A stretch of 64,000 bases of DNA. Origin: Spirochaetota bacterium. Lineage in GTDB: Bacteria > Spirochaetota > UBA4802 > JAFGJZ01. The stretch covers positions 84,488 to 148,487 of the forward strand of contig DAOPBR010000002.1 in assembly GCA_035395685.1 (NCBI GenBank). The letters are read 5' to 3'. Position numbers and translations under genes: made by a program. The notes beneath the pieces were generated by a model. It worked only from the letters and a program-made list of their open reading frames with translations, was not told the origin of the DNA and searched no databases. Positions 6,858 through 64,000 of this stretch are shown one piece after another. The stretch's first letter is position 1. Each line of letters opens with the position of its first letter.

Positions 6858-7298
6858 ATGCTGAGAGTAAATCAATTCAAATCGGCTGACTCGGCGAGAA
6901 TCAAAAGCGGTTCAGGCGCTTCATCGGCAAAAAAAACCGATGCATCTTTCTCAGCAGAGCTTTCAAACGCCGTCAGTGAAAAAAACATGCGCGATTTTCA
7001 GGATATGATGGACGATCTTCATGATCAGGAAAAACGCTTTCTCGAAAAACGCGATCTTGAAGAGCTGGCAAACTACAAGGCTCTTGTTCAGAAACTTCTT
7101 ACGTTCATAAGCGACAGCTCTTTTGAATCGAAGGAGCTTTCAAGACTTAAGTCAACCAAGGCTCCCTTTCTTATTACAAAAAAAATCAATGAAAAACTTC
7201 TCGAAATCTCACAGCAGATTTCACGCGGCAACAAGGCTTTCAATCTCCTCAAAGAGCTTGATGAAATCCGCGGTCTTATTCTCGATTATACAAAGTGA
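6858..7298 (+). CDS. YaaR-like (DUF327) protein
   Basis: 146-aa hydrophilic protein immediately upstream of holB, the same position yaaR holds in the Firmicute yaaR-holB-yaaT arrangement. The assignment rests on synteny and size only. Confidence 0.4.
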   Translation: MLRVNQFKSADSARIKSGSGASSAKKTDASFSAELSNAVSEKNMRDFQDMMDDLHDQEKRFLEKRDLEELANYKALVQKLLTFISDSSFESKELSRLKSTKAPFLITKKINEKLLEISQQISRGNKAFNLLKELDEIRGLILDYTK

Positions 7299-8269
7299 TT
7301 ATGATACCCCAAATAGAAGGCCACCAAAAGCAGAAGAATTATATCAAAAAAATAATAGCGTCACCGTCACGGCCGCATGCTCTGCTTTTCACGGGTGTCA
7401 ACGGAATAGGAAAAAGCGCAGTCGCAGTTGAATCTATTGCAGCGTTTTTATGCGCCGATGCAAACTCTCCATGCGGAAAATGCCGTTCGTGCCGTCAGGT
7501 ATTTTCTTTTTCGCACCCTGATTTTCTGATTCTCGAACCCGATGAAAAAGGCTCGATACCTATCGGCGACAAAGATAAAAAAGAAGAAGGAAGCGTTAGA
7601 GCGCTTCTAAGTTCATTAAGCGAAAAACCTTTCGGAGGAAAACGCGCCGTTTTAATAAAAGAAATCGACTGTGCGAAAACAGCCGGAATGAATGCTCTCT
7701 TAAAAACAATTGAAGAACCCTCTGAAAATACTCTGATAATTATGACGACTTCTTCCGAATCAAGAATTCTAAGAACAATACTTTCACGTTCATCAGTAAT
7801 CAGGTTCTCTCCCCTTCCCTTTGATTCAATTAAGAAACTGCTTGGAGATATGCCGGAAGCAGAAAAAGATTTTATTGCCGCGGCTTCGGGCGGATCAATG
7901 GAAAATGCAATCAGGTTTTCATCAGAAAAAACAAGAGAAGAACTTAAGAATTTCGCAGCTGGAATACGAAAAGCATATCTTTCAAATTCTTTCATAGAAC
8001 CGTCCTCTCTTTCCGCAATGTCGGGAAAAGACGGCTACGGTTTGATTGACGGAGCCGTAAATATTTATTCATTTCTTCTGAAAAACAAACTTACAGGAAA
8101 AGTGACCTTCAGCTCTTTTTTGAACGATTTATATATTGACGCGGATAAAACGCTTCACAACATTATCAAAATGCTTCTCTCCGCGAAAAAAGGCTCTGCA
8201 CGGAACCTGAATCCGGCTTTTTCGGTAAAAGCTCTTTCTTATAACTTACTCGCGGAGAAACTAATATGA
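7295..8269 (+). CDS. holB: DNA polymerase III delta-prime subunit
   Basis: Walker-A-like GVNGIGKS, a Zn-module CGKCRSCRQ, and the TTS/SRS motifs of clamp-loader delta-prime. Start overlaps the upstream gene by 4 bp. Confidence 0.8.
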   Translation: MIMIPQIEGHQKQKNYIKKIIASPSRPHALLFTGVNGIGKSAVAVESIAAFLCADANSPCGKCRSCRQVFSFSHPDFLILEPDEKGSIPIGDKDKKEEGSVRALLSSLSEKPFGGKRAVLIKEIDCAKTAGMNALLKTIEEPSENTLIIMTTSSESRILRTILSRSSVIRFSPLPFDSIKKLLGDMPEAEKDFIAAASGGSMENAIRFSSEKTREELKNFAAGIRKAYLSNSFIEPSSLSAMSGKDGYGLIDGAVNIYSFLLKNKLTGKVTFSSFLNDLYIDADKTLHNIIKMLLSAKKGSARNLNPAFSVKALSYNLLAEKLI

Positions 8270-19666: not shown

Positions 19667-20515
19667 TTATCTTAAAAGCTGGAGGACAGTCTGCGCTTTC
19701 TGATTAGCCTGAGCAAGCATTGAAGTGCCGCTCTGAACAAGAATCTGATCTTTAGTAAGATCAACCATTGTTTCAGCCATATCAGCGTCACGAATACGGG
19801 ATTCAGAAGCCTGAATGTTTTCATAAGCATTCATGAGACCTTTAGAAGCAAATTCGAGTCTGTTGTAATATGCTCCAAGATCCGCTCTCTGTTTTGCAAT
19901 CTTCTGAAGTGCTTCGTCGACAACACCGATTGTTCTGTTAGCTTTGTCAGCAGTCGAAAGATTTGCCAAGAATTCACCGGTTTTTTCTTTGAGGCTAAGA
20001 CCCTCAGCAGTCATAGTTCCGATGTAAACTCTTTCTCTCTGATGCATATTAGCTCCGATGTGGAACCACATAGAAGCCTTAGGATTAGTTCTGGAATAAT
20101 CACCAAGAAGAAGTTTAAATTTGTTAAACTCTGCCTGAGACGCAATTCTGTCAACTTCATCGATCAAAGCCGAAACTTCAACCTGGATGAGCTGGCGGTC
20201 TTCATTAGTATAAATACCGTTTGAAGACTGAACTGCAAGAACGCGTATTCTCTGAAGAATCTGAGAAGTCTGGTCAAGGTAACCTTCTGTAGTCTGAACA
20301 AAGCTCATGCCGTCTTCAGCATTTCTTTCAGCCTGACGAAGACCCTGAATCTGAGTTCTCATTTTTTCTGATACTGCAAGTCCGGAAGCATCGTCCCCTG
20401 ATTTGTTAATTCTCATACCGGAAGAAAGCTTCTCAGTAGATCTGTTAACGTCCCAGTGTTTGAACTTCAAAACACGGTTTGCATTAATCGCGCTCATGTT
20501 ATGGTTAATAATCAT
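19667..20515 (-). CDS. flaB: Flagellin FlaB (periplasmic flagellar filament core protein), copy 1
   Basis: [87 protein letters not shown]. Canonical spirochaete FlaB. An AGGAG RBS lies 8 nt upstream. Confidence 0.95.
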
Positions 20516-20954
20516 ATATACACTCCTTTGTATATTCTCACCCGATCTCCTTACCGGGCGCTATATATGCCGTTAGAACCAAAAGTATTCCGGCATAATG
20601 CCGGTCTGAATTTCAAAGAACATCCCAGTTTGCGTACAATATATTTGTAATGCCAAACCGGCTGGCGGAAAATCCGCCTTCAGCCGATTTCGCAATACCA
20701 CCAAAGTTATCCGCTTCCATCATCCGGAAGCATTTATCAGTTACAGATAACTATTCGGTGTCAGAGCACTGAATCTGGAAGGTGATTATTGTCGTTTTTT
20801 GGCGTTTATATGGATATATTTGCGTTTTTGAATCTTTTTAGGCATGAATTGGGTATTTATGGTTTTTTTCCGCTGTTCTCCCCCTTCATATATATAATCG
20901 GAATAACTCATTTTTTCCGTTAATTTTTTTAAAAAAAATGGCACAATTTATGCT

Positions 20955-32112: not shown

Positions 32113-32545
<433 letters not shown>

Positions 32546-48963: not shown

Positions 48964-51492
48964 TTATTTAAGTAAGTCTTCGCCGATATTATCAAGAATC
49001 TTGTCGCCCTTCAAGGATTTTATTCCGCTGTTGATTTCGTTTTTATTCTGTTCAACAATACTTTCCTTAGGCCCTTTGATATTGAGATTATATCCGTTGT
49101 TTCTGTCTGCGCAGAATTTGCAGTCTTCTTTCGGAGTTTTTCCGGGAATAAAAACTTCTTTGATAATTTCCTTGCAGTCTGACGTCGGTTTCATTCCGCT
49201 GAAGGCGCAGACTTCCATTGACTCAAGTCCGGCAAACTCAGGGAAACCTGTAACAGGATAACGGCTCAAAGCCTGACGCATGTATCTGCCCCAAGTCGGT
49301 GCCGCGATTCCGCCCCCCGTCTGCCCTACACCGAGAGAAATACCCTGAGTGTCATAACCGAACCATATTGCGGTAGTAACTTCCGGAGTAAAGCCCACAA
49401 ACCACGCATCGCGCCATCCGCTCGTAGTTCCTGTTTTGCCGCACGCCGGACGTCCCGGATAAGCTCCGGCACCAGTTCCTGAATTGATGGTGCTTTGAAG
49501 CATGCTTATCATTATCTGTGAAGTCGCAGGCTCAAGAATCCGTCTGCGCTTTTCAAATTTCTTTTTCATCTCAGACTCGTAGTCTTTAATTATTTTCTTA
49601 TCGCGGTCTTTTATATATCTGATTCCGTAAGGAATAACTTCCATACCGCCGTTAGCTATAGCGCCGTAAGCGCATGTTATTTCAAGCGGAGTTACATCTA
49701 TTGAACCAAGTGCAATGGAGAAATTTCTCGGAATTCTTCTCTTCGCGCTTGATTTATCCATGCCGAAAAAAGACGCGTAATAATCCATTACATTCTGAAT
49801 GCCTATTGATTCGGCAAGCTTAACGGAAATTACGTTAATTGACATCGCAAGAGCGCGGCGAAGGGTCATCATGCCGTTATAGCCGCCCTCATAGTTTTCG
49901 GGAGTCCAGTCGCCGCCCTCATTATCCATATAAAATGCCGGCGAATCAAAGAAAGAAGATGCGGGCGAAAAATCACCTTTTTCAAAAGCTGCGGCATAAA
50001 GCAGAGGCTTGATTGAAGAACCCGGCTGACGGTACGACTGAACGGCGCGGTTCAGCTGATTTTGTCTTTCAAAAGTACTTCCCCCGATCATCGCTTCGAT
50101 ATATCCGTTAGACTGGTTGACTGAAATGAGAGCGCCCTGAACCTTCAAGAAATCCTTGTCCTGAAAGTTGTTGAACTTATACTCGGAAAAGGTTTCACCC
50201 ATATTGTCGCTTCCGAGAAAAAAGTTTATTATTTCTATTTCATCAAGCGCGTCCTGCTTGAAAGCGTCGTTTATTTTTTTGCCTTCAAGAGAACCCTTGT
50301 TTGATATTGAGTTCAGACCAAAAAGAAGTGTAAACATTTCCGCTTCTGCGGCAAACTGTTCTGTAATAACATCCTCTTTGAAAAAAAGGAGATTGGTTGA
50401 AACCGCGTTCTGCTGGCGTAAAGCGGAATCCATGACTTCATTAGCAGCTAACTGTTTATTAAGATCAAGCGTCGTATAAACCGAGAGCCCGCCGGAATAA
50501 AGTTCCTCCTCGCTCATTTCTTTGAGGAGCTGGCGTCGCACATATTCAGTAAACCATGGAGCCTTGTCAATACGTTCAGACCACGAACTTATGCTCGGAG
50601 AAACATCGCTTATTTCATAACTGTATTCCGGCCAGAACTCATTATAAGCATCTTCAGCTTCCTTGACAGTGATATAGCCGAGATCGGCCATTTTAGCGAG
50701 AGCAATGATATGCATCTGTCTGGAACGCTTGATATTTTTAATCGGCGAATAAAGGTTCGGCGCCGAAGGAAGAGTCGAGAGAAGAGCGCATTCCGCAAGA
50801 TTAAGATCCCTTACGTGTTTCTTAAAGTAAAGCTGTGAGGCCGCTTCGACGCCGTAGGTGTCGTGACCGAGAAAAATCTGATTAAGATACAGCTCCATGA
50901 TCTTGTCTTTATCATAAAAAGCTTCAATCATCAGAGCAAGAAAGACGTCTTTGATTTTTCTGAAAATGGTACGCTTGCCCGAAGTCATCAGAACCTTGGC
51001 AAGCTGCTGGGTTATTGTACTTCCGCCCTGCTTGATGCTGAATGACGAGATATTCACAAGCATAGCGCGGACAATCGCCTTGGGATTTATTCCTATATGA
51101 TCGTAGAAATCATTGTCTTCCATGGCAATGAAAGCGTTAACCAGATTTTTCGGCATATCTTTGTAAGGAACAACATCTCGCTTCTGGCGGAAAAGTTCAG
51201 AAATCAGAATTCCGTTTTTATCATAAAGCTTGGTAGTGGTTTCCGGCATGTATTCCGCAAGAGCGCGAACCTTCATAAAATCCATGACGAGAAATACGTT
51301 AAATATAAAAGCACCAGCGCTGAGCGCGATGATTATTCGGCGTTTATTTTTTTTGAAATTAAAATTGAGGACAAAACCAAGAACGGAAGCAAAAGTCGGA
51401 ATATGGATCTCGGGAAAATACAATCTCGTTAAAAACGAAGGAATCCGAATCATACTTAATTTCGCTTTGCCGCCGAATTTCCGACCAAACAT
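48964..51492 (-). CDS. Class A penicillin-binding protein (bifunctional glycosyltransferase GT51 plus transpeptidase), PBP1A-like
   Basis: GT51 motifs (AMEDNDFYDHIGINP..GGSTITQQLAK). Transpeptidase SSIKP (SxxK), SVN and KTGTT motifs. N-terminal TM anchor. Confidence 0.9.
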   Translation of the reverse strand: MFGRKFGGKAKLSMIRIPSFLTRLYFPEIHIPTFASVLGFVLNFNFKKNKRRIIIALSAGAFIFNVFLVMDFMKVRALAEYMPETTTKLYDKNGILISELFRQKRDVVPYKDMPKNLVNAFIAMEDNDFYDHIGINPKAIVRAMLVNISSFSIKQGGSTITQQLAKVLMTSGKRTIFRKIKDVFLALMIEAFYDKDKIMELYLNQIFLGHDTYGVEAASQLYFKKHVRDLNLAECALLSTLPSAPNLYSPIKNIKRSRQMHIIALAKMADLGYITVKEAEDAYNEFWPEYSYEISDVSPSISSWSERIDKAPWFTEYVRRQLLKEMSEEELYSGGLSVYTTLDLNKQLAANEVMDSALRQQNAVSTNLLFFKEDVITEQFAAEAEMFTLLFGLNSISNKGSLEGKKINDAFKQDALDEIEIINFFLGSDNMGETFSEYKFNNFQDKDFLKVQGALISVNQSNGYIEAMIGGSTFERQNQLNRAVQSYRQPGSSIKPLLYAAAFEKGDFSPASSFFDSPAFYMDNEGGDWTPENYEGGYNGMMTLRRALAMSINVISVKLAESIGIQNVMDYYASFFGMDKSSAKRRIPRNFSIALGSIDVTPLEITCAYGAIANGGMEVIPYGIRYIKDRDKKIIKDYESEMKKKFEKRRRILEPATSQIMISMLQSTINSGTGAGAYPGRPACGKTGTTSGWRDAWFVGFTPEVTTAIWFGYDTQGISLGVGQTGGGIAAPTWGRYMRQALSRYPVTGFPEFAGLESMEVCAFSGMKPTSDCKEIIKEVFIPGKTPKEDCKFCADRNNGYNLNIKGPKESIVEQNKNEINSGIKSLKGDKILDNIGEDLLK

Positions 51493-51822
51493 AACTCACC
51501 TTAAAATCATTATTTTTGAAACTGAATCAGAACCGTTGTTTTTCCGCATTTAATAGAAGAAAAGCCTAAAACAGCCCAGTCAAAGACATAGGATTAAAAG
51601 GAAGCGCGGTATTCAACAATAAAAACTAAGTTTTATATCTTTTTTGATTTTGTTATGTAAAATCCACATTTTGATGTCATATTTTCGTTTTTTTGCCAAT
51701 ATTCGCCATTAATGAGACCTAATAATCATTAAAGGATTATTCAATAACACCGACTCTTTATATGACAATAAGGAATTCTCAGTTATCACGGATGATAACG
51801 GTAATATTCAAGGAGGAATAGA

Positions 51823-52671
51823 ATGATTATCAATCACAACGTCAGCGCGATTTTCGCACATCGCACACTCAAGTTTCACGACTGGAGTCTCACTTCTGAT
51901 ATCGAAAAACTTTCATCAGGCTTGAGAATCAATAAGGCCGGCGATGACGCGTCCGGACTTGCAGTATCTGAAAAAATGAGATCACAGATTCAGGGACTTC
52001 GTCAGGCTGAAAGAAACACAGAAGACGGCATGAGTCTTATACAGACTGCGGAAGGATATCTTGAGGAAACTCACGGAATCATTCAGCGTATACGTGTTCT
52101 TGCGGTGCAGGCGGCAAACGGTATTTATACACCTGAAGACCGTCAGCTGATTCAGGTTGAAGTATCCGAACTTATCGATGAAGTAGACCGTATTTCATCA
52201 CAGGCCGAGTTCAACAAGATGAAACTGTTGACAGGTTCGTTTGCAAGACTCAGACCAACCGCTTCAATGTGGTTCCATATGGGTCCGAACATGCACCAGA
52301 GAGAAAGAGTATTTATCGAGACAATGACTACAGCGGCACTAGGACTCAGAAACCCTACAACGCTTACATTTATATCGATCTCGACTCCGGGCAAAGCAAA
52401 CAGCGTAATAGGACTCGCGGACGAAGCTCTTAGAATTATATCAAAACAGAGAGCGGATCTTGGAGCATATTACAACAGACTCGAACATGCAGCGAAAGGA
52501 TTGATGAACGCGTACGAAAATACACAGGCATCAGAATCCCGCATCAGAGACACAGACATGGCAGAGCAGATGTCTTCATTCACAAGATATCAGATACTCC
52601 AGCAGGCTGCGACATCGATGCTCGCACAGGCGAATCAGAAGAGCCAGGGAGTGCTCAGACTGTTACAGTAA
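51823..52671 (+). CDS. flaB: Flagellin FlaB (periplasmic flagellar filament core protein), copy 2
   Basis: [87 protein letters not shown]. About 70% identical to copy 1. A GGAGG RBS lies upstream. Confidence 0.95.
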
Positions 52672-52713
52672 ACAAATTAAATTTTGGCTTGAGCCAATTT
52701 CGCAATACCACAA

Positions 52714-52760
52714 CCAAAAAAGCCGGACATCCCATCCGGCTTTTTTATGTTGAGAGGGGG
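52714..52760 (+). terminator. flaB-2 rho-independent terminator (agccgga-catccca-tccggct plus T-run), which is also the left copy of an about 47-bp direct repeat flanking the R-M cassette
   Basis: Perfect 7-bp stem followed by TTTTTT. The same ggacatccc.tc.ggct.tttta..tt.gag.aggg string recurs at 55117-55166. Confidence 0.65.
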
Positions 52761-52801
52761 ATGAAAATGGGAGACAAATAGAACATTTAGAATTTAAGCA
52801 A

Positions 52802-53875
52802 TCAAGCCATTACGCTTATCTTCTCTTCATCTAAAAACTCTTCCGTTGATAAAGTATGCGATAAAGTAATCTTTTTATTCTTAAACAACTTAGAAATATC
52901 TTTTTCAATTTTTTTTGCTAAATGATATGCCAAATTAACCGGAACAGCATTCCCAATCATTTTATATCCTGCTGTCAAATTATTGTATTTGAACACAAAG
53001 CTGTCTGGAAAAGTTTGTATCCGAGCACATTCACGAATACTTAATCTTCTGTATAAATGCTCTTGTCCTGGAGAAAATATTCTTTTATTCTGTTCAACAA
53101 AAACCATTTTGGGAGCTTGCGGATGTAAAGGAGCATGCCTTCCACCAGCTTGGATGGTAAACGAAACTTCATCCCAAGATCTCACTCTATTGCGAGACAT
53201 GAAAATCGTAGAGAAACCTCCAGTCATATATTCATGATTAGGAATAACGCATTTATTTCCATTCGTTTTTTGGAGAGAAAGCGCCGGTAAAGCATTATCC
53301 TTTAAATCATAAATGACATCTTTAAGAAGAACTTTATCGTGTTCAGTAATTGGTTCTGGAAAATTAAATTCTATTCCCAGATCAGAGCGATAACCAATAA
53401 AGAAAACTCGTTTTCTATCCTGTGGTACTCCATAATCTGATGCATTCAGAAGAGCGAATGATAAATTATAACCGCTTTCAACAAACATTTCTTTAATATT
53501 TTGCAATGCCTTACCATGTGTTGGCAACAACATTCCAGATACATTTTCAGCTAAAAAAAACAATGGTTTTTTATCACGCAAAATTCTGATAAAATCAAAA
53601 AACAATTGTCCTCTTTTATCATTAATTCCTCGAAGAGCGCCTGCTTCACTCCAACTTTGACAAGGTGGACCTCCAATAATACCGATGCATTCAGGAATTT
53701 CATTAGATGAAATTTCCGTTATACTTCTTTTATCTAAAATTGTTTTTTTATGATTAGCTTCAAATGTTTCCCATATTTCTTTGTCATATTCATTAGCCCA
53801 GACAATATTAAATCCAGCTTTTTGGAAACCTAAATCAAGTCCACCCGCTCCTGAAAAAAAAGAAACAATATTCAT
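52802..53875 (-). CDS. DNA (cytosine-5) methyltransferase, M.HaeIII-like (predicted GGCC specificity)
   Basis: Motif [12 protein letters not shown], motif [11 protein letters not shown], motif VI ENV, motif [16 protein letters not shown]-terminal variable region (..[41 protein letters not shown]..) resembles M.HaeIII/M.NgoPII as recalled. GGCC specificity is not verified. Confidence 0.9.
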
Positions 53876-53885
53876 TTATTTCTCC

Positions 53886-54872
53886 CTAAATTGTATTAAC
53901 CGATAAAGTATTCTTAAAAAGAGTATGAGGCGCACTTAGCAAATTGATGTCAAATTTTAATGATGGCTCAATTCTTGAACTGGCATTATGTATTCGAAAA
54001 GAAAGCTCCCAACCTTTATTAAATTTTACAATTATAGTTGTTAAAGAATTCTCTTTAAACTGAACATCTATAATCTGATCAGGTAGCCCGACAATGGGCG
54101 TAACAAATTTTGGAAACTTATCCTTAAAAGGCAAATTTAAAGTACCATGCAGATTAAAAGCTTGAATTTCAATATGATTCGTACTTCTTATAACTTTATA
54201 AAAATCTTTGTTACCAACTAAATATTCTATCATTCTTGAAGCTACTTGTTTTTTATTCATACTATATAATTTCAACAACTCATTTCGGAATGCTTCCAAA
54301 ATCGGCTTATATATTGATTCATGGTAATTGCCTAGCGTATCCCATTTCTGAGTGGATTTACTATCTATCTTAATTTTCTTTAACAAATCAAAAACCGGAG
54401 CTACATTTTCAAAATACTCTGATGAGCAATTAACACCAAGCCATTTATCGCCAAAATCTATATCATTAGATAAACGCGAATGCTTTACTGCGTGATGATT
54501 ATTTTTTGCAGATATGCCAATTTCCCATTTTTGCATTAGACGAATCGCAAGAACATCTCTTACATCACCTTCTTGCCCATGATTATCTGTCAATATTTCA
54601 AGTTGAAGCAAGTCCTTTTTATTTATACCATTTGAAAGACGAGGTTCAATATCAATCATAAAATTGACAGCAAAACTTGCACTTAATAAATAACGACTCT
54701 TTTCATTTTTATCGATACGGCTAAAACATTCTTCGGCAGTTATATACGCGGCGTTCTCAATAACTTGAACAGTAGTTTCTTTGGATAACTTCTCAAAAAA
54801 TTCTTTCAACAAAGCATATTCAAATGCTTTTCCACTTATCATTTGTTTTGAATTTTCAATCATGGATAACAC
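53886..54872 (-). CDS. Putative type II restriction endonuclease partnered with the m5C methyltransferase (HaeIII-type suspected)
   Basis: 328-aa ORF 10 bp upstream of the methyltransferase gene on the same strand. Size and context fit R.HaeIII-like enzymes. No motif was independently recognised. Confidence 0.5.
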   Translation of the reverse strand: MLSMIENSKQMISGKAFEYALLKEFFEKLSKETTVQVIENAAYITAEECFSRIDKNEKSRYLLSASFAVNFMIDIEPRLSNGINKKDLLQLEILTDNHGQEGDVRDVLAIRLMQKWEIGISAKNNHHAVKHSRLSNDIDFGDKWLGVNCSSEYFENVAPVFDLLKKIKIDSKSTQKWDTLGNYHESIYKPILEAFRNELLKLYSMNKKQVASRMIEYLVGNKDFYKVIRSTNHIEIQAFNLHGTLNLPFKDKFPKFVTPIVGLPDQIIDVQFKENSLTTIIVKFNKGWELSFRIHNASSRIEPSLKFDINLLSAPHTLFKNTLSVNTI

Positions 54873-55116
54873 CTATAATTTGTTGAGAGTCAAATCCTCT
54901 TAACTTATTACAAACCATCGCTATCATCGTCAATACTAAAACCATGAACAAAGAACATGTTCGTCATAGTAATTTATAAACAAGAAAATTCTCACCAGTA
55001 ACCTCTCAGCGCCAAATTACTCGAATACTTTACAAAGGATATAACGTATTTTAGAAATTAATTATCAATATAACTTTTTTTTTGCAATCCGTTGAAAGCG
55101 GTCTGAAAATCAAGGC

Positions 55117-55166
55117 GAAAAAGGTGGACATCCCGTCAGGCTGTTTTACATTATTGAGGAGAGGGA
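55117..55166 (+). repeat. Right, degenerate copy of the flaB-terminator-derived direct repeat (R-M cassette boundary)
   Basis: gaaaaaggtggacatcccgtcaggctgttttacattattgaggagaggg matches 52714-52760 at about 70% identity. The stem complementarity is lost in this copy. Confidence 0.5.
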
Positions 55167-55260
55167 AATTAGAACAGGGGTCAGTCCGAGATAGTTATTT
55201 CCTCAAAAAAAGAAAGCTTCTATATTGAATCATTTCGTATTATATAAGATGGATAACATT

Positions 55261-55773
55261 TTAATTATCCTTTTCTGGAATAATCGAAGCTAAATCATCT
55301 TCAACATCAATTCCATATAAAGTTGCAATTTGAGCAACCATGATACCAAAATTACCTCTTAATTCTCCTAACGCAGAAGCAAAAGTCCAACTTGCCCAAT
55401 GACCCCAACTCCTTGCATTATCCATGAATCTATTATCTTCAATATTCATTTTATCAAGAAATTTCCTACAGGATATACGCATAGCTTTAACTGGATCATA
55501 CAGTTTTGATTTATTAGACAAACTTTGCAATTCCGTAGTTAAAAATTTACGAATTTCAATAATGGATTGAACACAGTGGTTGGGCACTTCCATTTCGCTC
55601 GGACTATATAAAACCCTGCGATCTTCGAGAAAACGAATAATCCGTTTTGCAATATTACATTCTGCCTCTGATGGATTCCAAGAAATTCCAAATACAGAAC
55701 AATTAATTCCGGTTATTCTTTCTCTGATTTCTGAAAATTTCATAATCATTCCTAAATCAAAATTTCTATCCAT
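55261..55773 (-). CDS. Hypothetical protein, orphan 170-aa ORF in the accessory island
   Basis: Clean ORF with its own 330-bp AT-rich upstream region. No recognisable motif (it lacks the Vsr, HTH and PIN signatures that were checked). Confidence 0.5.
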   Translation of the reverse strand: MDRNFDLGMIMKFSEIRERITGINCSVFGISWNPSEAECNIAKRIIRFLEDRRVLYSPSEMEVPNHCVQSIIEIRKFLTTELQSLSNKSKLYDPVKAMRISCRKFLDKMNIEDNRFMDNARSWGHWASWTFASALGELRGNFGIMVAQIATLYGIDVEDDLASIIPEKDN

Positions 55774-56099
55774 TTATCCTAAACATAGATGATACTTCTG
55801 TCACATACTCCACCAAAAATCTAATAATACACGAAGCTAAACCTATAAAATGTTTCAATCTCGCTTCTTTTGTTTTTTCATTTTAAAGTTGCGAACTGTT
55901 CAGCTTTAACCGATGAACACCCTAAGATCTTCCACTCAATGATTATTATGATCTTTATGCATAATGTTTTCATGAATGTCAAATCCAAAATAATCCAACT
56001 GTCACAGAAAAAATTACGCGTATGCTGAGCGCAGCGAATAAACGCGTAATGATATTATAAAATGAATGATTTCTAAAATCAAGAAAGTGCGCTAAGCAC

Positions 56100-56337
56100 T
56101 TCAAATAAAGACGGATGATAGCAATAACACCAAAACCGTCCGACGCAGTCGGACACCAAATAAGCGCAGATTATCGCAGTCATTTCGAAGAAATGCGCGA
56201 TAGTTCTGTCGCGACAAGCCCCGCGCAGCGGTGCCCTTTTCTTTCGCCGAATTTCTTTTGGGCACGCAAAAGAAATCGGCAAACGGATTTAAAAGGTGCG
56301 AAGCACCTTTTGTGTCTCGCATGACACCATGCGAAAC
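56100..56337. repeat. GC-rich, hairpin-dense mosaic element abutting the mazF stop codon
   Basis: Hairpins aaaaggtgc-gaa-gcacctttt (56291-56311), tcgcatg-acacc-catgcga (56317-56334, 3 nt from the mazF stop), gccgaatttctttt...aaaagaaatcggc, and gtccgac-gca-gtcggac (56137-56153). These modules are shared with the element at 57105-57488. Confidence 0.7.
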
Positions 56338-56661
56338 TTATTCTACCAACATTTCTTTAATAACTGCTTTGATCTTCGTGATCGTTTTCTTGTCAAGTTT
56401 ACCTAATTTTTTAATTATTCTTACTTTGTCTATCGTTCTAATCTGATCTATAACTATCCATCCATCCTTCAAATTAAAATTTGTCTTAACACGGGATGGA
56501 TAGTCATGTCCTTTTGTTGTCATTGGCGCAATGATTATTGTTGAAATATTATGATTCATTTCATTCGGCGAAATTACGGTACATGGCCGGCTTTTTTTAA
56601 TTTCATGACCGACTGTTGGGTCAAGATTTACCAACACAACATCATATTGATCTATTACCAT
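56338..56661 (-). CDS. mazF: MazF/PemK-family endoribonuclease toxin
   Basis: ..YDVVLVNLDPTVGHEIKKSRPCTVISPNEMN..STIIIAPMTT.. typical PemK/MazF fold. 7-bp overlap with the upstream antitoxin gene. Confidence 0.85.
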   Translation of the reverse strand: MVIDQYDVVLVNLDPTVGHEIKKSRPCTVISPNEMNHNISTIIIAPMTTKGHDYPSRVKTNFNLKDGWIVIDQIRTIDKVRIIKKLGKLDKKTITKIKAVIKEMLVE

Positions 56662-56924
56662 TCGAAATCTTCCTGCTCAATATCCAATGAATCATCAATA
56701 AGCAAAGAGTCGTGTTTATTTTCAGACATTTCTTTGAACTTTTTCGACCATTCTCTTCTGGGTGTTTCTTTTACAGGAATAATAATGATTTTCTGATTTT
56801 CAATCTTCATTTCAACTTCTGTTCCGATATGACATTGTGATAGAACTGAAGAAGGTATTCGTATCCCCTTTGAGTTTCCTATTTGTACAATATTGACTTT
56901 CATAATGAATAACCTATCGATCAT
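56655..56924 (-). CDS. mazE: MazE/AbrB-type (SpoVT/AbrB fold) antitoxin
   Basis: MKVNIVQIGNSKGIRIPSSVL.. swapped-hairpin AbrB N-terminus with an acidic C-tail. Confidence 0.8.
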   Translation of the reverse strand: MIDRLFIMKVNIVQIGNSKGIRIPSSVLSQCHIGTEVEMKIENQKIIIIPVKETPRREWSKKFKEMSENKHDSLLIDDSLDIEQEDFEW

Positions 56925-57104
56925 TTAACGTAATCACAATATAGTTACATGTCAACTGTTTAATTTCTTCAAATCAACTCTTCCCCTAACCTCATTCCGC
57001 CGCATTCGAACAAACCAAAATCAATGCAAGATTAAATCGCCATAAAATATACCGCTTCATAACGATTGAAATCTGCATGCTTAGTGATTACAGAAATTTC
57101 AAAT

Positions 57105-57488
57105 CTAAAAACAAACCGCCTGGCGTGGGGAAAAGATGAATGAAAACAAAATCATTAAAACGTCCGACGCAGTCGGACACTAAGGCGGTAGGAGAACCGC
57201 CACCGAGGCGCTTCACAAGCAAACAGGAAGTTTGCACAAAGCGCCTCGCAACGGGCGACCGCAGCATCCGGCAAAGCCGGTGCGAGGAATTCGCCCGACA
57301 AAAGCCAGGAGTGGGATCTCAAAGGGATGAGGAGCGGCGACTGAGCTCCTCGTCCCTTTGAATATTCTCGCATGATCCATGCGAAACCGGATTACAAAGG
57401 CGAAGCCTTTGACAACAAGTCCGGTGACCGGACAAATCGGATTTAAAAGGTGCTCTGCACCTTTTATGTATCACATGACACCATGTAA
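57105..57488. repeat. GC-rich, hairpin-dense mosaic element abutting the vapC stop codon
   Basis: aaaaggtgc-tct-gcacctttt (57445-57465); tcgcatg-atc-catgcga; caaaggc-gaa-gcctttg; gtccgg-tga-ccggac; a long stem aagggatgaggagc...gctcctcgtccctt; gaggcgctt...aagcgcctc (57205-57247) enclosing gcaaac..gtttgc; gtccgac-gca-gtcggac (57162-57178); and the aaaacaaaccgccWggYgtgg module (57107-57134). Confidence 0.7.
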
Positions 57489-57887
57489 TTAAACCCAGTT
57501 CTCCATTCTCAATTTCTTAACCTTTGAAAATTCCTTCAAATTATTAGAAACCAAAATTAAATCTAACGATATTGCCTGTGCCGCTAATAAATAATCCATC
57601 GCTCCGATCGGTTGACCGGATTTTTCCAAGTCCGATCTGATAATCCCATATTCTTTTGCCGCTTTAAAATCATAATCAATCAATTTAAACGGCAACAGGA
57701 ATTCAATTAATGCAATTCGGCTGTTATCAGGATTTTTACTTTTATTGATGCCGTATTCGAGTTCCGAAACCGTAATTGAAGATATGGCAATATCGTCTAT
57801 TTCATAATTCGACAACCGCTGTATAACAGAAACGGGTCTTTTATTGATAATATAAATACATATGTTTGTATCAAGAAGATACTTCAT
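57489..57887 (-). CDS. vapC: VapC PIN-domain ribonuclease toxin
   Basis: MKYLLDTNICIY.. with the conserved PIN acidic residues (D6, E42-like SSITVSELEYG, D-containing C-terminal region). Confidence 0.85.
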   Translation of the reverse strand: MKYLLDTNICIYIINKRPVSVIQRLSNYEIDDIAISSITVSELEYGINKSKNPDNSRIALIEFLLPFKLIDYDFKAAKEYGIIRSDLEKSGQPIGAMDYLLAAQAISLDLILVSNNLKEFSKVKKLRMENWV

Positions 57888-58129
57888 TCGATAATTTCTC
57901 TCGCTTCAATGGCCGGCTGAATCCGTTCAGACATAAAATTTTCAGGAAACTTCTCCAGACTTTTTGAAAAATTATCCCAAACTTTATCTTTCGGTATAAG
58001 AATAACCATATCATCAATCCGTTTAACAAATACAGATTCGGTTAAAAATCTATATTCCTTTGGCAATCTTACGGCCTGACTCCTTCCGGTTGTAAATATT
58101 TTTGCTGCGTCCATATAATTATCCCCCAT
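57884..58129 (-). CDS. vapB: VapB (VagC/AbrB-type) antitoxin
   Basis: ..TTGRSQAVRLPKEYRF.. SpoVT/AbrB motif. 4-bp overlap with vapC. Confidence 0.8.
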   Translation of the reverse strand: MGDNYMDAAKIFTTGRSQAVRLPKEYRFLTESVFVKRIDDMVILIPKDKVWDNFSKSLEKFPENFMSERIQPAIEAREIIE

Positions 58130-58283: not shown

Positions 58284-59320
58284 AAAAACAAACCGCCAGG
58301 TGTGGAAAAAAAATACGTGCGCCCTCACCTCGGCTCCTGTAAAATTTACTCACAAATTCAGTGTCCCATTGCTTTATCTCCGCGAACTTCCTGTTCGCTC
58401 CGAATGCAACTTTAAATCAATTTAACACCTATATCTCCGAGGTAACGCTTGCGTTCTCCTGCTGCGGACTTCGTCCGCCTCGCAGGCAGTCGGAACGATC
58501 CCGACAATCGAGACGCTTCCCTCGCAAACTGCTCGACTCTTTTTGTGCCGTCCTGGCACAGAGTCTCGTTGCCATCATCGTGATGGCTCAAAGTTTGCAC
58601 AAAAGCGTCTCGACAGTTTCCGCCTCCGTGCGTTAGAGCATTTATGCTTGAATACAATTGTTGCTTTTTCTCAACGGTCATCCTTGACCGTTTCGATTAT
58701 ATCAATAATGCCAATTATCACCTCAAACTATGCGGTAACGCTTGCGGTCTCCCGCTATGGACTTCGTCCATAGCGGGCAATGTTTCCGCCTCCGTGCGGA
58801 TTTACTCACAAATTCAGTATACCATTGCTTTATCTCCGCGAACTTCCTGTTCGCTCCGGATACAACATCAAATTGATTTATCACCTCAAACTATGCGGTA
58901 ACGCTTGCGTTCTCCTGCTGCGGACTTCGTCCATCTCGCAGGCAGTCGGAACGATCCCGACAATCGAGACGCTTCCCTCGCAAACAGGAGGTTTGCACAA
59001 AAGCGTCTCGACAGTTTCTACTCCTCGGCGCGTTTGCCGTCCTGGCCGCGCCTCATTGCCGGAAGGAATCCGGCAACAAATCGCAACTTGTCGTCACGGA
59101 GGACGACACAAAGCGATTTGCAATGCACATCCTGTGCAAGCGCCTGCGGATTTGCTAATGACTTCAATCAAATGATTCGTTATCTCCGCGAACTTCCTGT
59201 TCGCTCCGAATGTAACTTTAAATCAATTTAACACCTATATCTCCGAGGTAACGCTTGCGTTCTCCTGCTGCGGACTCCGTCCGCCTCGCAGGCAATGTTT
59301 CCGCCTCCGTGCGGAAACTG
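58284..59320. repeat. ORF-less tandem array of the mosaic hairpin repeat family: about 2.3 copies of a 460-bp composite unit plus partial modules
   Basis: A unit of about 145 nt starts at 58343, 58803 and (5'-truncated) 59176. Each copy is followed by modules agtcggaacgatcccgacaatcgagacgcttccctcgcaaac (58487, 58947), gtttgcacaaaagcgtctcgacagtttc (58589, 58994) and gtttccgc-ctccgt-gcggaaac (58781, 59297-59318). A unique 60-nt insert occupies 58529-58588. A leader module aaaacaaaccgccaggtgtgg lies at 58284-58310. The ORFs the caller reports inside the array are artefacts of GC-rich repeats. Confidence 0.75.
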
Positions 59321-59387
59321 ATTGACAATATCTGCCTATAATTTGTGCTTATCCCAAATACTTCATAATTTCCGGAGGAACCGAACC

Positions 59388-59918
59388 ATGCCCCAAATAG
59401 GAATAATTCTCGGCAGCGATTCCGATCTCCCTAAAATCAGACAGTGCCCTGAAATTCTCGATAAATTCGGTGTCAGTTTTGAGATCATCTTCTCATCTGC
59501 TCACCGCACACCAGAACAGACCAAAGAATGGGTTGAAAGCGCGCGTTCACGCGGCATCAAAGTAATCATCGCCGCTGCAGGCGGCGCGGCGCATCTTCCT
59601 GGTGTTTGCGCGGCTCACACCACCCTTCCGATTGTCGGAATTCCGATTGAATCTCCGGTATCGGGCGGTCTCGATTCCATTCTCTCAATAATTCAGATGC
59701 CGTCCGGAATTCCGGTAGCTGCGATGCCGGCAGGTAAAGCGGGTGGAGCAAACTCGGCGCTTTTCGCTTTATCAATTCTTTCGGTTTCCGACTCTTCGAT
59801 TGCCGAAAAACTCGCGGCATACCGCGAAGAAATGAAAACTGAAATCAAAAAGAAAAATGATCTTTTAAATGAAAAAGGCTACAAAGAATATATTGATTCA
59901 CTCGGAGTTAAAAAATGA
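59388..59918 (+). CDS. purE: N5-carboxyaminoimidazole ribonucleotide mutase
   Basis: [34 protein letters not shown].. canonical PurE. The start is reassigned to ATG 59388, preceded by GGAGGA. Confidence 0.9.
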
Positions 59919-61465
59919 ATCTTCATGATGAAAAAGTTCTGATACTGGATTTCGGTTCGCAGTACACTCAGCTTATAGCCCGCAAAGTGCGTGAACAGAA
60001 AGTCTATGCGGAAATCGTTCCATTCAATTACCCGGTTGAAAAAATCAAAAACGAAAAACCAAGTGCAATCATCCTTTCAGGCGGCCCTTCTTCAACTTAT
60101 GACAAAGGCGCTCCCTTCGTTTCAAATGAAATCTTCAACTTGAATGTTCCAGTACTCGGCATCTGTTACGGTCTTTACATGATAGTAAACGGTTTTGCCG
60201 GAAAGAGCTCTTCATCAAACAAGAAAGAATACGGCAGAGCGGAAATCGTTATCAAGAAAGAATCCCCTCTTTTCAAGGGTCTTTCAGAACGCGAAACCGT
60301 ATGGATGAGCCACGGCGATAAAGTAACTGAAATTCCTTCCGGTTTTGAAATAGTTGCCGAATCAGAAAACACTCCGGTTGCGGCAATTCAGAACAAAGAA
60401 AAAAACATCTACGGCATTCAGTTTCATCCCGAAGTTTTTCACAGCGTTCACGGAAAAGAAGTCATCGCGAATTTCCTTTTCGAGATATGCAAACTCAAGG
60501 GACTATGGACGATGAAATCCTTCGTTGATTCGTCGGTTGAACAGATCAGAAGAGAAGTCGGAAACGGAACCGTTCTTCTCGGGCTTTCGGGCGGAGTCGA
60601 TTCTACCGTAACAGCTGTTCTTTTGCAGAAAGCAATCGGAGAAAAGCTTTACTGCGTATTTGTAGATAACGGCGTTCTCAGAAAAAATGAAGCCGAGAAC
60701 GTCATCAAGAGATACAAGGAAGGACTTAATCTCAACCTCATCGCTGTTGACGCGGCGGATCTATTTCTCAAAAAACTCAAGGGTGTGACTGATCCCGAAA
60801 AGAAAAGAAGAATTATCGGAAAAGAATTCATAAAGGTTTTCATGAAGGAAGCAAAGAAGATCGGACGTTTCGATTTTCTTGCGCAGGGAACATTATATCC
60901 TGATGTTATTGAGTCAGTTTCAATCAAAGGACCTTCAGACACCATCAAGAGCCACCACAACCGCGTTCCTGAAGTCCTTAAGCTGATTGAGTCAGGCAAG
61001 GTAGTCGAACCTCTCAAAGAGCTTTTTAAAGACGAAGTACGCGCTCTCGGTACCGAACTCGGCATTCCCCGCGAACTTATCGCGCGCCATCCTTTTCCGG
61101 GTCCGGGTCTTGCGATACGCATAATCGGCGAAATCACAAAAGCGCGCCTCGACATTCTCCGCGAAGCGGACGACATCATTGTCAGCGAAATTAAGAACGC
61201 CGGATACTATGACAAACTCTGGCAGGCATTCGGAATATTTCTTCCTGTAAAGTCTGTCGGCGTAATGGGCGATAATAGAACTTATGAAAACGTAATCGCA
61301 ATCCGTGCCGTCGAATCAACAGACGCGATGACTGCAGACTGGGCGGATCTTCCGCACGATTTCGTTAAAAAGATATCGAGCCGTATAATCAATGAAGTGC
61401 GCGGAATTAACCGTGTAGTCTATGACGTCTCTTCCAAACCGCCTTCAACAATAGAATGGGAATAA
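59915..61465 (+). CDS. guaA: GMP synthase (glutamine-hydrolysing)
   Basis: GATase1 domain (GICYG..H..E catalytic triad context), PP-loop SGGVDSTV, and the C-terminal dimerisation domain (..[17 protein letters not shown]..). Confidence 0.95.
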
Positions 61466-61470
61466 AATAA

Positions 61471-61501
61471 AAGAGGGGTAACGCCCCCTCTTTTATTTTT
61501 T
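61471..61501. terminator. Bidirectional rho-independent terminator (aagagggg-gtaac-gccccctctt plus T-run)
   Basis: Perfect GC-rich stem between the convergent guaA and ClC genes. Confidence 0.65.
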
Positions 61502-62860
61502 ATCTTCAATATGCATTATTTCTTTCATTCGCTTTTTTATTTTCCGCTGAATCTTCTTCTGGTTTATTTCGCATGAAGGCTTTATTTTTCCGAATGTCTT
61601 TCCGGTTTCGACATCTACTGATTCCGACTTTCTGACTGAAAGCACCTGCGAAGGATATATGCTTCTATGACCCGTCATCAGAAAACTGACGAGGCAGGAT
61701 ACGCATGCATATGGCGCGATCTCAGGGCCGAAAAGTTCAATAGCCATTACGCTGGACGCAATCGGAGCGTTCGTCACACCTGCCAGCATACTCACCAGAG
61801 CGACAGCAGCGAATGTCTGAGGATTAATTCCGAATAATGAAGCAAATGCCGAACCGAGAGTCGAACCGACATAAAGTATCGGCGTAATTATTCCGCCGAC
61901 GCCTCCGAAGGCAAGCGTGACTGCCGTCGAAACAGTTTTTACTATCGGTGCGTAAAAAGGAACTTCGCTCCCGTGAAGTGATTTTTCGACCGTATTCATG
62001 CCGAGACTTAAGTATTCGGGAGAGATAATGAATCCAATAAGACATAGAATCAATCCACCAAAAAAAGCTCTGATGATAATATTTCCTGAAAATTTTGAAG
62101 CTATCCGGTTGATGTATTTATTGATTTCTATAAACGCAAAAGAGCAAATACCGAAAAATACACCTGCGAGAATAATCTTCAAAAAGAATAATTCAGAAAA
62201 CTGCGGCACGAAGTTCAAAGGCTCGATAAAATACTTCGCACCAAGCATAGAAGAAACCTGATACGATGTTACACCGGCAACAAGAGACGGCAGAAAAACA
62301 TCATACAATATGCTTCCGACAAATAAAACTTCAACTCCGAAAATCGCACCCGAAACCGGAACACCGAAAACACCCGCGAATCCGGCGCTGACTCCGCATA
62401 TCATGAGCTTTTTGCGGTCAACAGTATTGAACTTGAATATCGCGGAAAATAATGAACCGAAACCCGCGCCGATATCCGCACAGGGAGCCTCCTTGCCGGC
62501 TGAACCGCCTGATGCTATTGAGATTATTGACAAAAAGAATGCCTTGATTATCGAAACCAGTGAAATCTTTCTTCCACTATGAATCACGTTTATAACTTTA
62601 TCTGTTGTAAAATCAAGTGATGAAGGAAATATTTTTAATGAAAGAAATGCGACACATGGAAGAACAAAAGGCAGAATAAAGTAATAGTAAGAAAATCCTT
62701 CCTGAAGTGCAATCGAAAAATCAAGAAGCCTGACAAACAATGACGACGCAACGCCGGTGAATATTCCGACAATCGTGGCAAGAATAACCCATTTGACTAC
62801 ACTCGCAAAAATAACAGTTTCTTCGGTAATTTTTTTCTTCATTCTTCTTTCCGTCAGCAA
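61493..62860 (-). CDS. ClC-family voltage-gated chloride channel / H+-Cl- antiporter
   Basis: GSAGKEAP (ClC 'GKEGP'-type selectivity motif). Polytopic membrane protein with Gly-rich helices. Confidence 0.8.
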   Translation of the reverse strand: MLTERRMKKKITEETVIFASVVKWVILATIVGIFTGVASSLFVRLLDFSIALQEGFSYYYFILPFVLPCVAFLSLKIFPSSLDFTTDKVINVIHSGRKISLVSIIKAFFLSIISIASGGSAGKEAPCADIGAGFGSLFSAIFKFNTVDRKKLMICGVSAGFAGVFGVPVSGAIFGVEVLFVGSILYDVFLPSLVAGVTSYQVSSMLGAKYFIEPLNFVPQFSELFFLKIILAGVFFGICSFAFIEINKYINRIASKFSGNIIIRAFFGGLILCLIGFIISPEYLSLGMNTVEKSLHGSEVPFYAPIVKTVSTAVTLAFGGVGGIITPILYVGSTLGSAFASLFGINPQTFAAVALVSMLAGVTNAPIASSVMAIELFGPEIAPYACVSCLVSFLMTGHRSIYPSQVLSVRKSESVDVETGKTFGKIKPSCEINQKKIQRKIKKRMKEIMHIEDKK

Positions 62861-62973
62861 ATCCGGCTTATAAACATCCGTTTTTATGGGATTATAGACA
62901 GAAAGAAATATCAGTCAATAGGTTTACTGAAAAACTGATATTTTTTATTCAGAATATTTTTTTATATTATAAT

Positions 62974-64000
62974 TCAATCAGATGACTTCACCGTAATTTC
63001 AACACGGCGGTTTTTCTGTCGATTAATTTCATTATCATTGTCGACAGCTGAATTAGAATATCCGTAACCCTTTGACGAGATACGGTTATTTTTTATACCA
63101 CGGCCGAAAAGATATTCAGCAACTGCTTCCGCTCTTTTTTTAGAAAGCTTCATGTTATAGTCCGGGCCGCCGACATTATCAGTATGTCCTGAGATTTCAA
63201 TTTTGACTCCGGGATTATTTTTCATAAAATCATAGAGCCGTTCAAGCGCAGGCATAGACTCGGGCCGTAGTTTAGCACTTCCCGAATCGAAATAAATATT
63301 ATCCGCGGAGAAAGTATATCCTGTCCGGACTTTTCCTTTATTCAGATAAACAGTCTTTGTAACGATATCATCAGCAGAACCGGTTTCAAAAGTTTCATTA
63401 TAATAAGCATATCCGTCGGCTGTAATTTCAGCCGAATATGATGTACTTTTTCTTACGGTAAACGCCGAACGTCCGCGAGTGTCAGCTGAACTTTTCAAAG
63501 CTATCCCGGAAGTTCGATCTCCTATTCTAACAAGTTTGACATTAGCCCGTATCGGAGACTTTGTCGCGGCATCAAGCGTGATTACATCAAAAAACATTAC
63601 AGGATAACCCTGACGAAATTCATCAGAAAGACTGCAGATTACCGAACTGTCATTTTTCCGGAATGAATGATATGCCTTTCGCGAAGTGCCCTGCACATAT
63701 ACCGGGAAAAATTCATTCCTGAATGTGTTAAGGGATTTCATGTTTTCGATATTATCAATTTTAAAGTTTCCTTTTAGTGATGAAAGCGTACCCGAATATA
63801 CATCATATCCTCCGCTTCCGCCTCTTCCGTTAGATGAAAAATAAACGGTTTCACCGTCAGGATGCAGATAAACTGAACATTCATCCATTGGAGTATTGAT
63901 GTTCGCCATAGGAACGGGATTATCCCATATTCCTTTTTCATCTCTGCGTGAAATATATATATCAAGACCGGTCGTGACATTTCTGTTTGATACAAAAAGA
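62974..64000 (-). CDS. OmpA-family protein with N-terminal PD40/TolB-like beta-propeller repeats (5' end lies outside the window)
   Basis: C-terminal OmpA peptidoglycan-binding motif (ISGHTDNVGGPDYNMKLSKKRAEAVAEYL). PD40-like repeats (..YLHPDGETVYFSS..GGYDVY..). The reading frame stays open to the window edge, beyond the first Met at 63909. Confidence 0.7.
   Translation of the reverse strand, partial: LFVSNRNVTTGLDIYISRRDEKGIWDNPVPMANINTPMDECSVYLHPDGETVYFSSNGRGGSGGYDVYSGTLSSLKGNFKIDNIENMKSLNTFRNEFFPVYVQGTSRKAYHSFRKNDSSVICSLSDEFRQGYPVMFFDVITLDAATKSPIRANVKLVRIGDRTSGIALKSSADTRGRSAFTVRKSTSYSAEITADGYAYYNETFETGSADDIVTKTVYLNKGKVRTGYTFSADNIYFDSGSAKLRPESMPALERLYDFMKNNPGVKIEISGHTDNVGGPDYNMKLSKKRAEAVAEYLFGRGIKNNRISSKGYGYSNSAVDNDNEINRQKNRRVEITVKSSD

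Follow-up and report, generated by a model that had tools for sequence, protein, structure and literature searches.

The question raised by the flaB-purE interval of a Spirochaetota bacterium is how a HaeIII-type pair of restriction-modification (R-M) genes came to lie between two copies of the terminator of flaB, a flagellin core gene. The interval was analysed in a stretch of 64,000 nucleotides (nt) from contig DAOPBR010000002.1 (assembly GCA_035395685.1), hereafter called the window. A first-pass annotation of the window had proposed that a mobile R-M unit was inserted into the terminator hairpin and duplicated its target. Our results revealed a real, homologous direct repeat around the R-M pair, an inner copy with no stable fold and an arrangement that is fixed in the lineage of the window. 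The reading that we prefer, tentatively and at somewhat below an even chance, is that the pair was inserted long ago, immediately beyond the flaB terminator and the purine-rich box that follows it, and that an element of about 45-49 bp was thereby left on both sides.

The direct repeat

A repeat search of positions 51000-57000 returned 52717-52768 against 55118-55169 (52 nt, 71% identical without gaps) as the top direct-repeat family. In local alignment, 52717-52761 and 55118-55166 were identical in 38 of 49 columns (78%) with two small indels. The repeat of about 47 bp in the first-pass annotation was therefore found again, at a length of 45-49 nt. Each copy was the best non-self match of the other across the window, and the degenerate core pattern AAAAAGNNGGACATCCCNTCNGGCTNTTTTA, allowing up to three mismatches, matched only the two repeat sites in the window (0 matches expected).

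Two unrelated intrinsic terminators, each made of an A-run, a G+C (guanine plus cytosine) stem and a T-run, might resemble one another by coincidence. Both copies are located downstream of minus-strand genes, where terminators are expected, and their identity is modest (71-78%). However, the alignment score of 41 was above that of every other site in the window and above all of 2000 dinucleotide shuffles (mean 18.4, maximum 30), so the similarity is well above background. Furthermore, the longest exact match (9 nt, GGACATCCC) spans the hairpin loop, and the similarity runs on past the hairpin into the purine box. The loop is unconstrained by terminator function and yet it matches, indicating that the copies are homologous and not just terminator-like. 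The right copy is no terminator at all, and the terminator of the other flaB gene is unrelated to the repeat unit. A coincidence is hardly credible on these grounds. Two possible extensions of the repeat, TTTYGCAAT upstream and AAnTAGAACA downstream, were insignificant alone (P ~0.29 and ~0.23).

Two other origins were considered and rejected. The right copy is not the remnant of a second flaB, since neither tblastn nor DNA alignment found a flagellin coding remnant beside it. A degenerate terminator pattern searched against 185,579 representative genomes matched two spirochaete records only, both at the flaB terminator; the window itself gave only two matches, and at that pattern stringency the idea of a dispersed repeat was dropped.

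Terminator fold and decay

The left copy contains a perfect 12-bp hairpin, A6-GCCGGA-CATCCCA-TCCGGC-T6 (52717-52747), with predicted folding energies of -26.5 and -28.8 kcal/mol on the two strands (z about -3). It is followed by a purine-rich box, ATGTTGAGAGGGGGA, which ends at 52761. Because the hairpin is predicted to fold on both strands, it can serve as terminator for flaB on its left and for the convergently transcribed methyltransferase gene on its right. In the right copy no stable hairpin is formed (z +0.65 and +1.5). Relative to the left copy it carries seven substitutions and two indels, among them changes to either arm of the stem and to the T-run, and the stem is destroyed. The earlier description of a right copy decayed to about 70% identity with a lost stem thus agrees with our identity values and folds. 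The claim that the R-M pair went into the hairpin itself did not survive, since both copies hold the whole hairpin and the following purine box and the R-M cargo begins at least 15 nt beyond the T-run, that is, beside the hairpin.

The 3' untranslated region (UTR) of flaB together with the terminator (52672-52746) was more conserved than the gene: it was almost invariant where the coding DNA differed by 9-16%. Such conservation hints at a regulatory role. A 24-nt piece of this UTR, CTTGAGCCAATTTCGCAATACCAC (52688-52711, plus strand), is repeated with two mismatches at 20677-20700 (plus strand), in the gap that separates the other flagellin gene (19667-20515, minus strand) from an HD-domain gene (21089 onwards, plus strand). 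A hairpin whose loop is similar comes after this second occurrence as well.

The R-M pair between the copies

The insert between the repeat copies comprises 2356 nt (52762-55117). Within it, the adjacent, co-stranded methyltransferase and endonuclease genes are the only open reading frames (ORFs) of at least 50 amino acids (aa) with a family match (PF00145 and PF09556), as the first-pass annotation had stated. The methyltransferase matched M.HaeIII (PDB 1DCT) end to end with the variable region included (E = 3.9e-140, 470 bits, residues 1-324). Its Pfam match was full-length, and the translation contains the catalytic motifs of C5-methyltransferases, including ENV. The endonuclease covers the entire RE_HaeIII model (PF09556) and has more than 5000 homologues; its gene call starts from an ATG at 54863 (325 aa), and a GTG start gives 328 aa. 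In gene adjacency, shared strand and full-length matches the pair resembles the HaeIII system (M.HaeIII PDB 1DCT/3UBT; PF09556), and it probably recognises GGCC. It differs from that system in its endonuclease, for which the identity to any other sequence in a collection of 5.8 billion proteins does not exceed 76%.

The G+C content of the R-M unit was 0.28-0.37, compared with about 0.43-0.47 in the flanking core genes. No GGCC site occurs within the unit. In the core DNA of the window (1-52716 and 59322-64000), GGCC was under-represented, with an observed/expected ratio of 0.58, and the depletion was as strong or stronger (0.35) in sister species that do not have this R-M pair (L003, L006, L038). 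Avoidance of GGCC was therefore discarded as a clock for the residence of the R-M pair. GATC was also depleted in core DNA (~0.66). The depletion of both sites suggests that the whole group has long been exposed to GGCC- and GATC-specific restriction.

The nearest foreign R-M pair (L030) showed 76% DNA identity and had only coding sequence in common with the window. The nearest foreign relative of the DUF6650 gene, which adjoins the right repeat copy, had 86% protein identity (L021), and its common stretch with the window was restricted to 55243-55794. The protein collection held no DUF6650 allele with an identity above 86% and below 100%. As only coding sequence is in common, these relatives were uninformative on the flanks and were set aside as a guide to the boundaries of the unit.

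In contigs of the window's lineage, no integrase or transposase was called within 10 kb on either side, and the genes there were housekeeping genes. Between the two ends of 52762-55117 no inverted repeat was found. A unit borne by a transposon or an insertion sequence (IS) was rejected, because the insert ends have no terminal inverted repeats and this lineage has no transposase there. The site-specific mechanism proposed in the first-pass annotation likewise found no counterpart in an integrase, an attC site or terminal inverted repeats. A simple promoter scan of the minus strand at 54873-55117 found no convincing promoter, and the R-M genes may therefore be transcribed from the DUF6650 promoter.

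The lineage and its sister species

The arrangement of the window, designated type A, was found in more than 10 independent assemblies, with core DNA 99.9-100% and island DNA 99.8-100% identical to the window. All public contigs of the lineage carry the R-M pair or are too short to tell. Other contigs encode an identical FlaB followed by other cargo. Their DNA identity to the window was 88-91% in the left core and 84-89% in the right core, and at core identities of only 84-91% they represent sister species, not sister strains. Their cargo between flaB and purE consisted of lipoproteins, zinc-ribbon proteins, a different PIN/RHH pair and IS3 or IS110 elements.

The flaB 3' UTR and hairpin were almost invariant in every type, and similarity stopped just beyond the T-run; the purine-rich box after the T-run was kept in types A, E, F, G and H. 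The box similarity of types A and G ended at ~52761, the same point at which the similarity of the left and right repeat copies ends. This coincidence indicates that the repeat unit corresponds to the conserved element that bounds a hotspot on its flaB side. In blastn comparison, the lineage-specific block extended over 52746-55825 and comprised the R-M pair, the right copy and the DUF6650 gene.

As judged from these comparisons, the flaB-purE interval is a substitution hotspot for gene gain and replacement in these spirochaetes. It resembles the integration hotspots and defence islands known at core genes in that flaB and purE bracket different cargo in related species, in that the cargo in the window consists of low-G+C R-M and toxin-antitoxin genes, and in that IS elements occur in some variants. 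It differs from them in that the cargo of the sister species is mostly lipoproteins and proteins of no known function. A further difference is that all of the cargo is co-oriented, with cassettes split by conserved junctions and G+C-rich hairpin strings. The sister islands carry an IS110-family element just before purE (L003 15960-17144) and an IS3-family element ~180 nt past the flaB terminator (L008 11057-12330). These elements are insertions themselves and are unconnected with the repeat. Many assemblies break at the flaB-purE island.

A proposed insertion with long target duplication

Insertion of R-M genes with long target duplication was reportedly described by Nobusato and colleagues in 2000. 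In this class, both genes are in the insert, the insert is shorter than 20 kb, the repeats are longer than 30 bp and there is no mobility gene; among the published cases are several duplications of 46-47 bp at gene 3' ends with low-G+C inserts, and the repeats are 93-100% identical (Furuta, Abe and Kobayashi, 2010; PMC2853133). The window shows an insert of 2.36 kb that contains both the endonuclease and the methyltransferase gene, no mobility gene, an insert G+C below that of the host, and repeats of 45 and 49 nt (>30 bp) at a gene 3' end, whose sequence is otherwise unique in the window. A 46-bp Type II case in Haemophilus influenzae is nearly the same size (PMC2853133). In our analysis, the locus would thus belong to a known class and would be fairly ordinary within it, not a new kind of scar. 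One difference from the published cases is that the duplicated unit here is a predicted two-way terminator with a conserved box.

Under this reading, a promoter-poor, low-G+C R-M pair would have been inserted, not recently, at the flaB-proximal edge of the island, at a point just past the flaB terminator and the following purine box. The boundary element of ~45-49 bp would have been duplicated, with one copy on each side of the insert, either through the filling-in of staggered breaks or through recombination that used homology at one end only and was illegitimate at the opposite one. The outer copy would still have been required as the terminator of flaB and, from the other side, of the methyltransferase gene, and may have stayed invariant for that reason. 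The inner copy would have been redundant and lost its stem. With no terminator left between the DUF6650 gene and the R-M pair, the latter would be read through from the DUF6650 promoter, predicted near 56054-56082.

Several observations weigh against such an insertion. The repeats are only 78% identical, compared with 93-100% in the published cases, so the "unusually clear scar" of the first-pass annotation was an overstatement of a phenomenon that had already been described. An empty site, with a single copy and no R-M pair, was absent from all collections searched. The pattern ATTTCGCAATACCACN{40,70}AGAACAGGGGTCAG, which joins the flaB 3' UTR to the flank on the DUF6650 side, gave 0 matches in the metagenome and genome collections. 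Exact-protein look-ups of FlaB, DUF6650, the methyltransferase, the endonuclease, MazF and PurE (six in all) revealed no R-M-free arrangement in the window's lineage; those of DUF6650, the two R-M proteins, MazF and the lineage-specific PurE returned only type A or contigs that were too short. The sister species have one copy, at flaB, with other cargo beyond it, and no contig joins flaB to the DUF6650 side. They show cargo substitution at the boundary, not the simple presence or absence of an insert. The purine box of the right copy is nearer to the type H boundary (25 of 31 columns) than to its own left partner, which means that the duplication is old or derived from a different allele. Finally, a 37-nt hairpin module (55081-55117) directly adjoins the right copy and shares 88% identity with one in the sister-species contig L007. 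There, AAAAAAGCCGGGATGGGAT, a half-site that resembles the terminator, comes after the module, and no R-M pair is near. In favour of the first-pass proposal, the topology, the low G+C and the absence of a mobility gene fit the published class; the insertion itself is plausible but unproven, with no empty site in the collections searched and with a live alternative for the origin of the second copy.

The hairpin module and the origin of the right copy

The 37-nt module also aligned with 57262-57305 of the window and with hairpin strings of L006. The AAAAAAGCCGGGATGGGAT half-site of L007 consists of the terminator arm and loop in inverted sense, and it is located inside the 3' hairpin string of another cassette. 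Two readings follow: the incoming R-M segment may have carried a mosaic module out of a related island, or the DUF6650 cassette may already have ended, at its 3' side, in the module and the decayed terminator. The latter option leads to the main alternative, which we regard as less likely than not, namely that the second copy is older than the R-M pair or arose independently of it. The island would then consist of cassettes set apart by hairpin modules that multiply and diverge. The second copy would have arisen by duplication of a hairpin module or been imported together with the DUF6650 gene, so that 55081-55166 is the 3' end of the DUF6650 cassette, formed by local tandem duplication of the flaB boundary or acquired from a related island in which the DUF6650 gene was adjacent to flaB. 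The R-M pair would then have landed between existing repeats, or have been present already, which corresponds to the class "chance insertion between repeated sequences" of Furuta et al.

This alternative draws on the L007 module, which lies beside a terminator-like half-site in the absence of any R-M pair, and on the hairpin strings with compensatory stem changes that separate other cassettes. It would also account for the resemblance of the right box to the type H boundary and for the whole block 52746-55825 being the unit that differs from the sister species. However, it needs at least two events that place the R-M pair exactly between the copies, and a genome with both repeat copies and no R-M pair was seen in none of the collections searched. 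Moreover, the terminator core is not dispersed in the representative genomes. The terminator-like linkers of the mosaic were only borderline significant: the match at 57300 needs four edits, and an equal chance match occurs in a core gene. They were accordingly rejected as a weak sign of serial duplication.

G+C-rich hairpin strings lie 3' of the toxin-antitoxin cassettes at 56100-56335, 57100-57487 and 58340-59335, and after mazF in L053-L056 as well. They include 186-nt repeats (three copies) before purE, with a fold z-score of -4.7. The hairpin architecture after mazF is kept in other species through compensatory stem changes. The modules of these strings had no Rfam match and occurred within the 64-kb window only in the island; no known RNA family was found by Rfam in the island. 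A segment of 110 nt (57252-57361) was 98% identical to L003 and L006 though the core genes are ~90% identical, which suggests strong constraint or recent exchange between species.

The features of the interval are listed in Table 1. All of its cargo genes are on the minus strand, oriented toward flaB, and ~1 kb of G+C-rich repeats lies between vapBC and purE. Elsewhere in the window, 32123-32450 (minus strand) gave a partial Rfam match to large-subunit ribosomal RNA (rRNA) of 112 bits, in which model positions 2045-2912 are compressed into 328 nt; it is an isolated rRNA-like fragment, not an rRNA operon.

Table 1. Features of the flaB-purE interval, in window coordinates
Feature	Coordinates	Strand	Evidence and remarks
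flaB, flagellin core gene, 282 aa	51823..52671	+	Pfam Flagellin_N and Flagellin_C; same protein on contigs of several sister species
flaB 3' UTR, 45 nt	52672..52716	+	Few base differences among sister-species loci with core DNA 84-91% identical
Left repeat copy	52717..52761	+	Predicted two-way intrinsic terminator hairpin at 52717-52747 (100% conserved in all island types) and purine-rich box
3' spacer of R-M unit, 40 nt, lineage-specific	52762..52801	-	Types A and G alike until ~52761, divergent after
C5 cytosine DNA methyltransferase, M.HaeIII-like, 357 aa	52802..53875	-	PF00145, 1e-99; PDB 1DCT match
HaeIII-family restriction endonuclease, 328 aa from GTG	53886..54872	-	PF09556, 4e-98, full-length
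AT-rich stretch upstream of endonuclease gene	54873..55080	-	No copy of the island's inter-cassette junction; no flaB coding remnant
Hairpin module TTTTGCAATCCGTTGAAAGCGGTCTGAAAATCAAGGCG	55081..55117	+	Hairpin-mosaic family of the island; 38/43 identical to L007 7350-7392
Right repeat copy, decayed terminator and purine box	55118..55166	+	No hairpin formed
DUF6650 gene, 170 aa, cargo adjoining right copy	55261..55773	-	PF20355
Leader and conserved junction common to sister-species islands	55826..56181	-	blastn 75-77% identity to L003, L006 and L007
mazEF toxin-antitoxin cassette	56338..56924	-	PemK_toxin, MazE_antitoxin
vapBC cassette (PIN and AbrB/MazE-type antitoxin)	57489..58129	-	PIN, MazE_antitoxin
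purE, core gene closing the island on the right	59388..59918	+	AIRC domain; guaA next, also +

Cassettes, junctions and the integron alternative

A conserved junction of ~105 nt (55990-56100, minus strand) recurs between cassettes in several sister species, upstream of unrelated cargo (L006 ~7900-8010, L007 ~7130-7240 and L055 1230-1340). It holds two hairpins, AAGTGC-TTA-GCGCACTT and ATTACGCGT-N20-ACGCGTAAT. In three contexts it is followed by a common leader of ~230 nt with a TTGACA-like box. Upstream of the endonuclease gene, alignment with the junction and leader was not above the shuffled background. The other cassettes have this junction and leader in front of them; the R-M pair has neither and is thereby marked out as a separate addition.

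Small cassettes in a single orientation (R-M, DUF6650 and two toxin-antitoxin pairs) and a junction that recurs upstream of unrelated cargo raise the alternative of an integron-like or recombinase-driven array, in which the flaB terminator would be the attachment site and the R-M pair the latest captured cassette. Treponema species have chromosomal integrons (PMC3607928). The window shares with such arrays the unidirectional cassettes of one or two genes, toxin-antitoxin and R-M genes among them, with structured DNA between. In addition, the closest foreign relatives are enclosed by imperfect inverted repeats with AAC...GTT ends, located at 1-170 and 2206-2272 of L030 for the R-M pair and at 3382-3543 of L021 for the DUF6650 gene. 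By eye only, these flanks resemble integron attC sites, and the genes appear to travel as integron cassettes elsewhere.

In the window's lineage, however, there is no intI or other integrase or recombinase gene within 10 kb on either side. The flaB hairpin has a perfect 12-bp stem and, by eye, neither the AAC/GTT R boxes, the bulged L box nor the extrahelical bases of attC. The breakpoints are misplaced for attC as well, since island types cease to be homologous on the cargo side of the T-run, not at a GTT on the flaB side. The R-M pair has no junction element, and the IS110 and IS3 elements are not linked to the repeat. On this basis the R-M unit was rejected as an integron gene cassette, and an integron-like array as a whole is quite unlikely.

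A further possibility, which we consider unlikely, is that the flaB terminator and purine box serve as the entry site of an integrase-independent accretion of cassettes. Every cassette would enter at the flaB end, the terminator region would be duplicated at each step, displaced copies would turn into the G+C-rich hairpin strings and junctions between the older toxin-antitoxin cassettes, and the R-M pair with its decayed repeat would be the latest and best-preserved step.

Implications

If the preferred reading of an old insertion beside the flaB terminator is true, the locus would be a spirochaete example of R-M pairs entering genomes without a transposase or integrase, with tens of bp of target duplicated. 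The target in this case would be a two-way terminator. It would also suggest that the redundant duplicate decays and that the new genes are thereby fused to a neighbouring transcription unit. What is less ordinary about the locus is the island around it, with conserved junctions and structured hairpin strings. This wider context, in which one core-gene interval is refilled differently in each sister species, may outweigh the scar itself.

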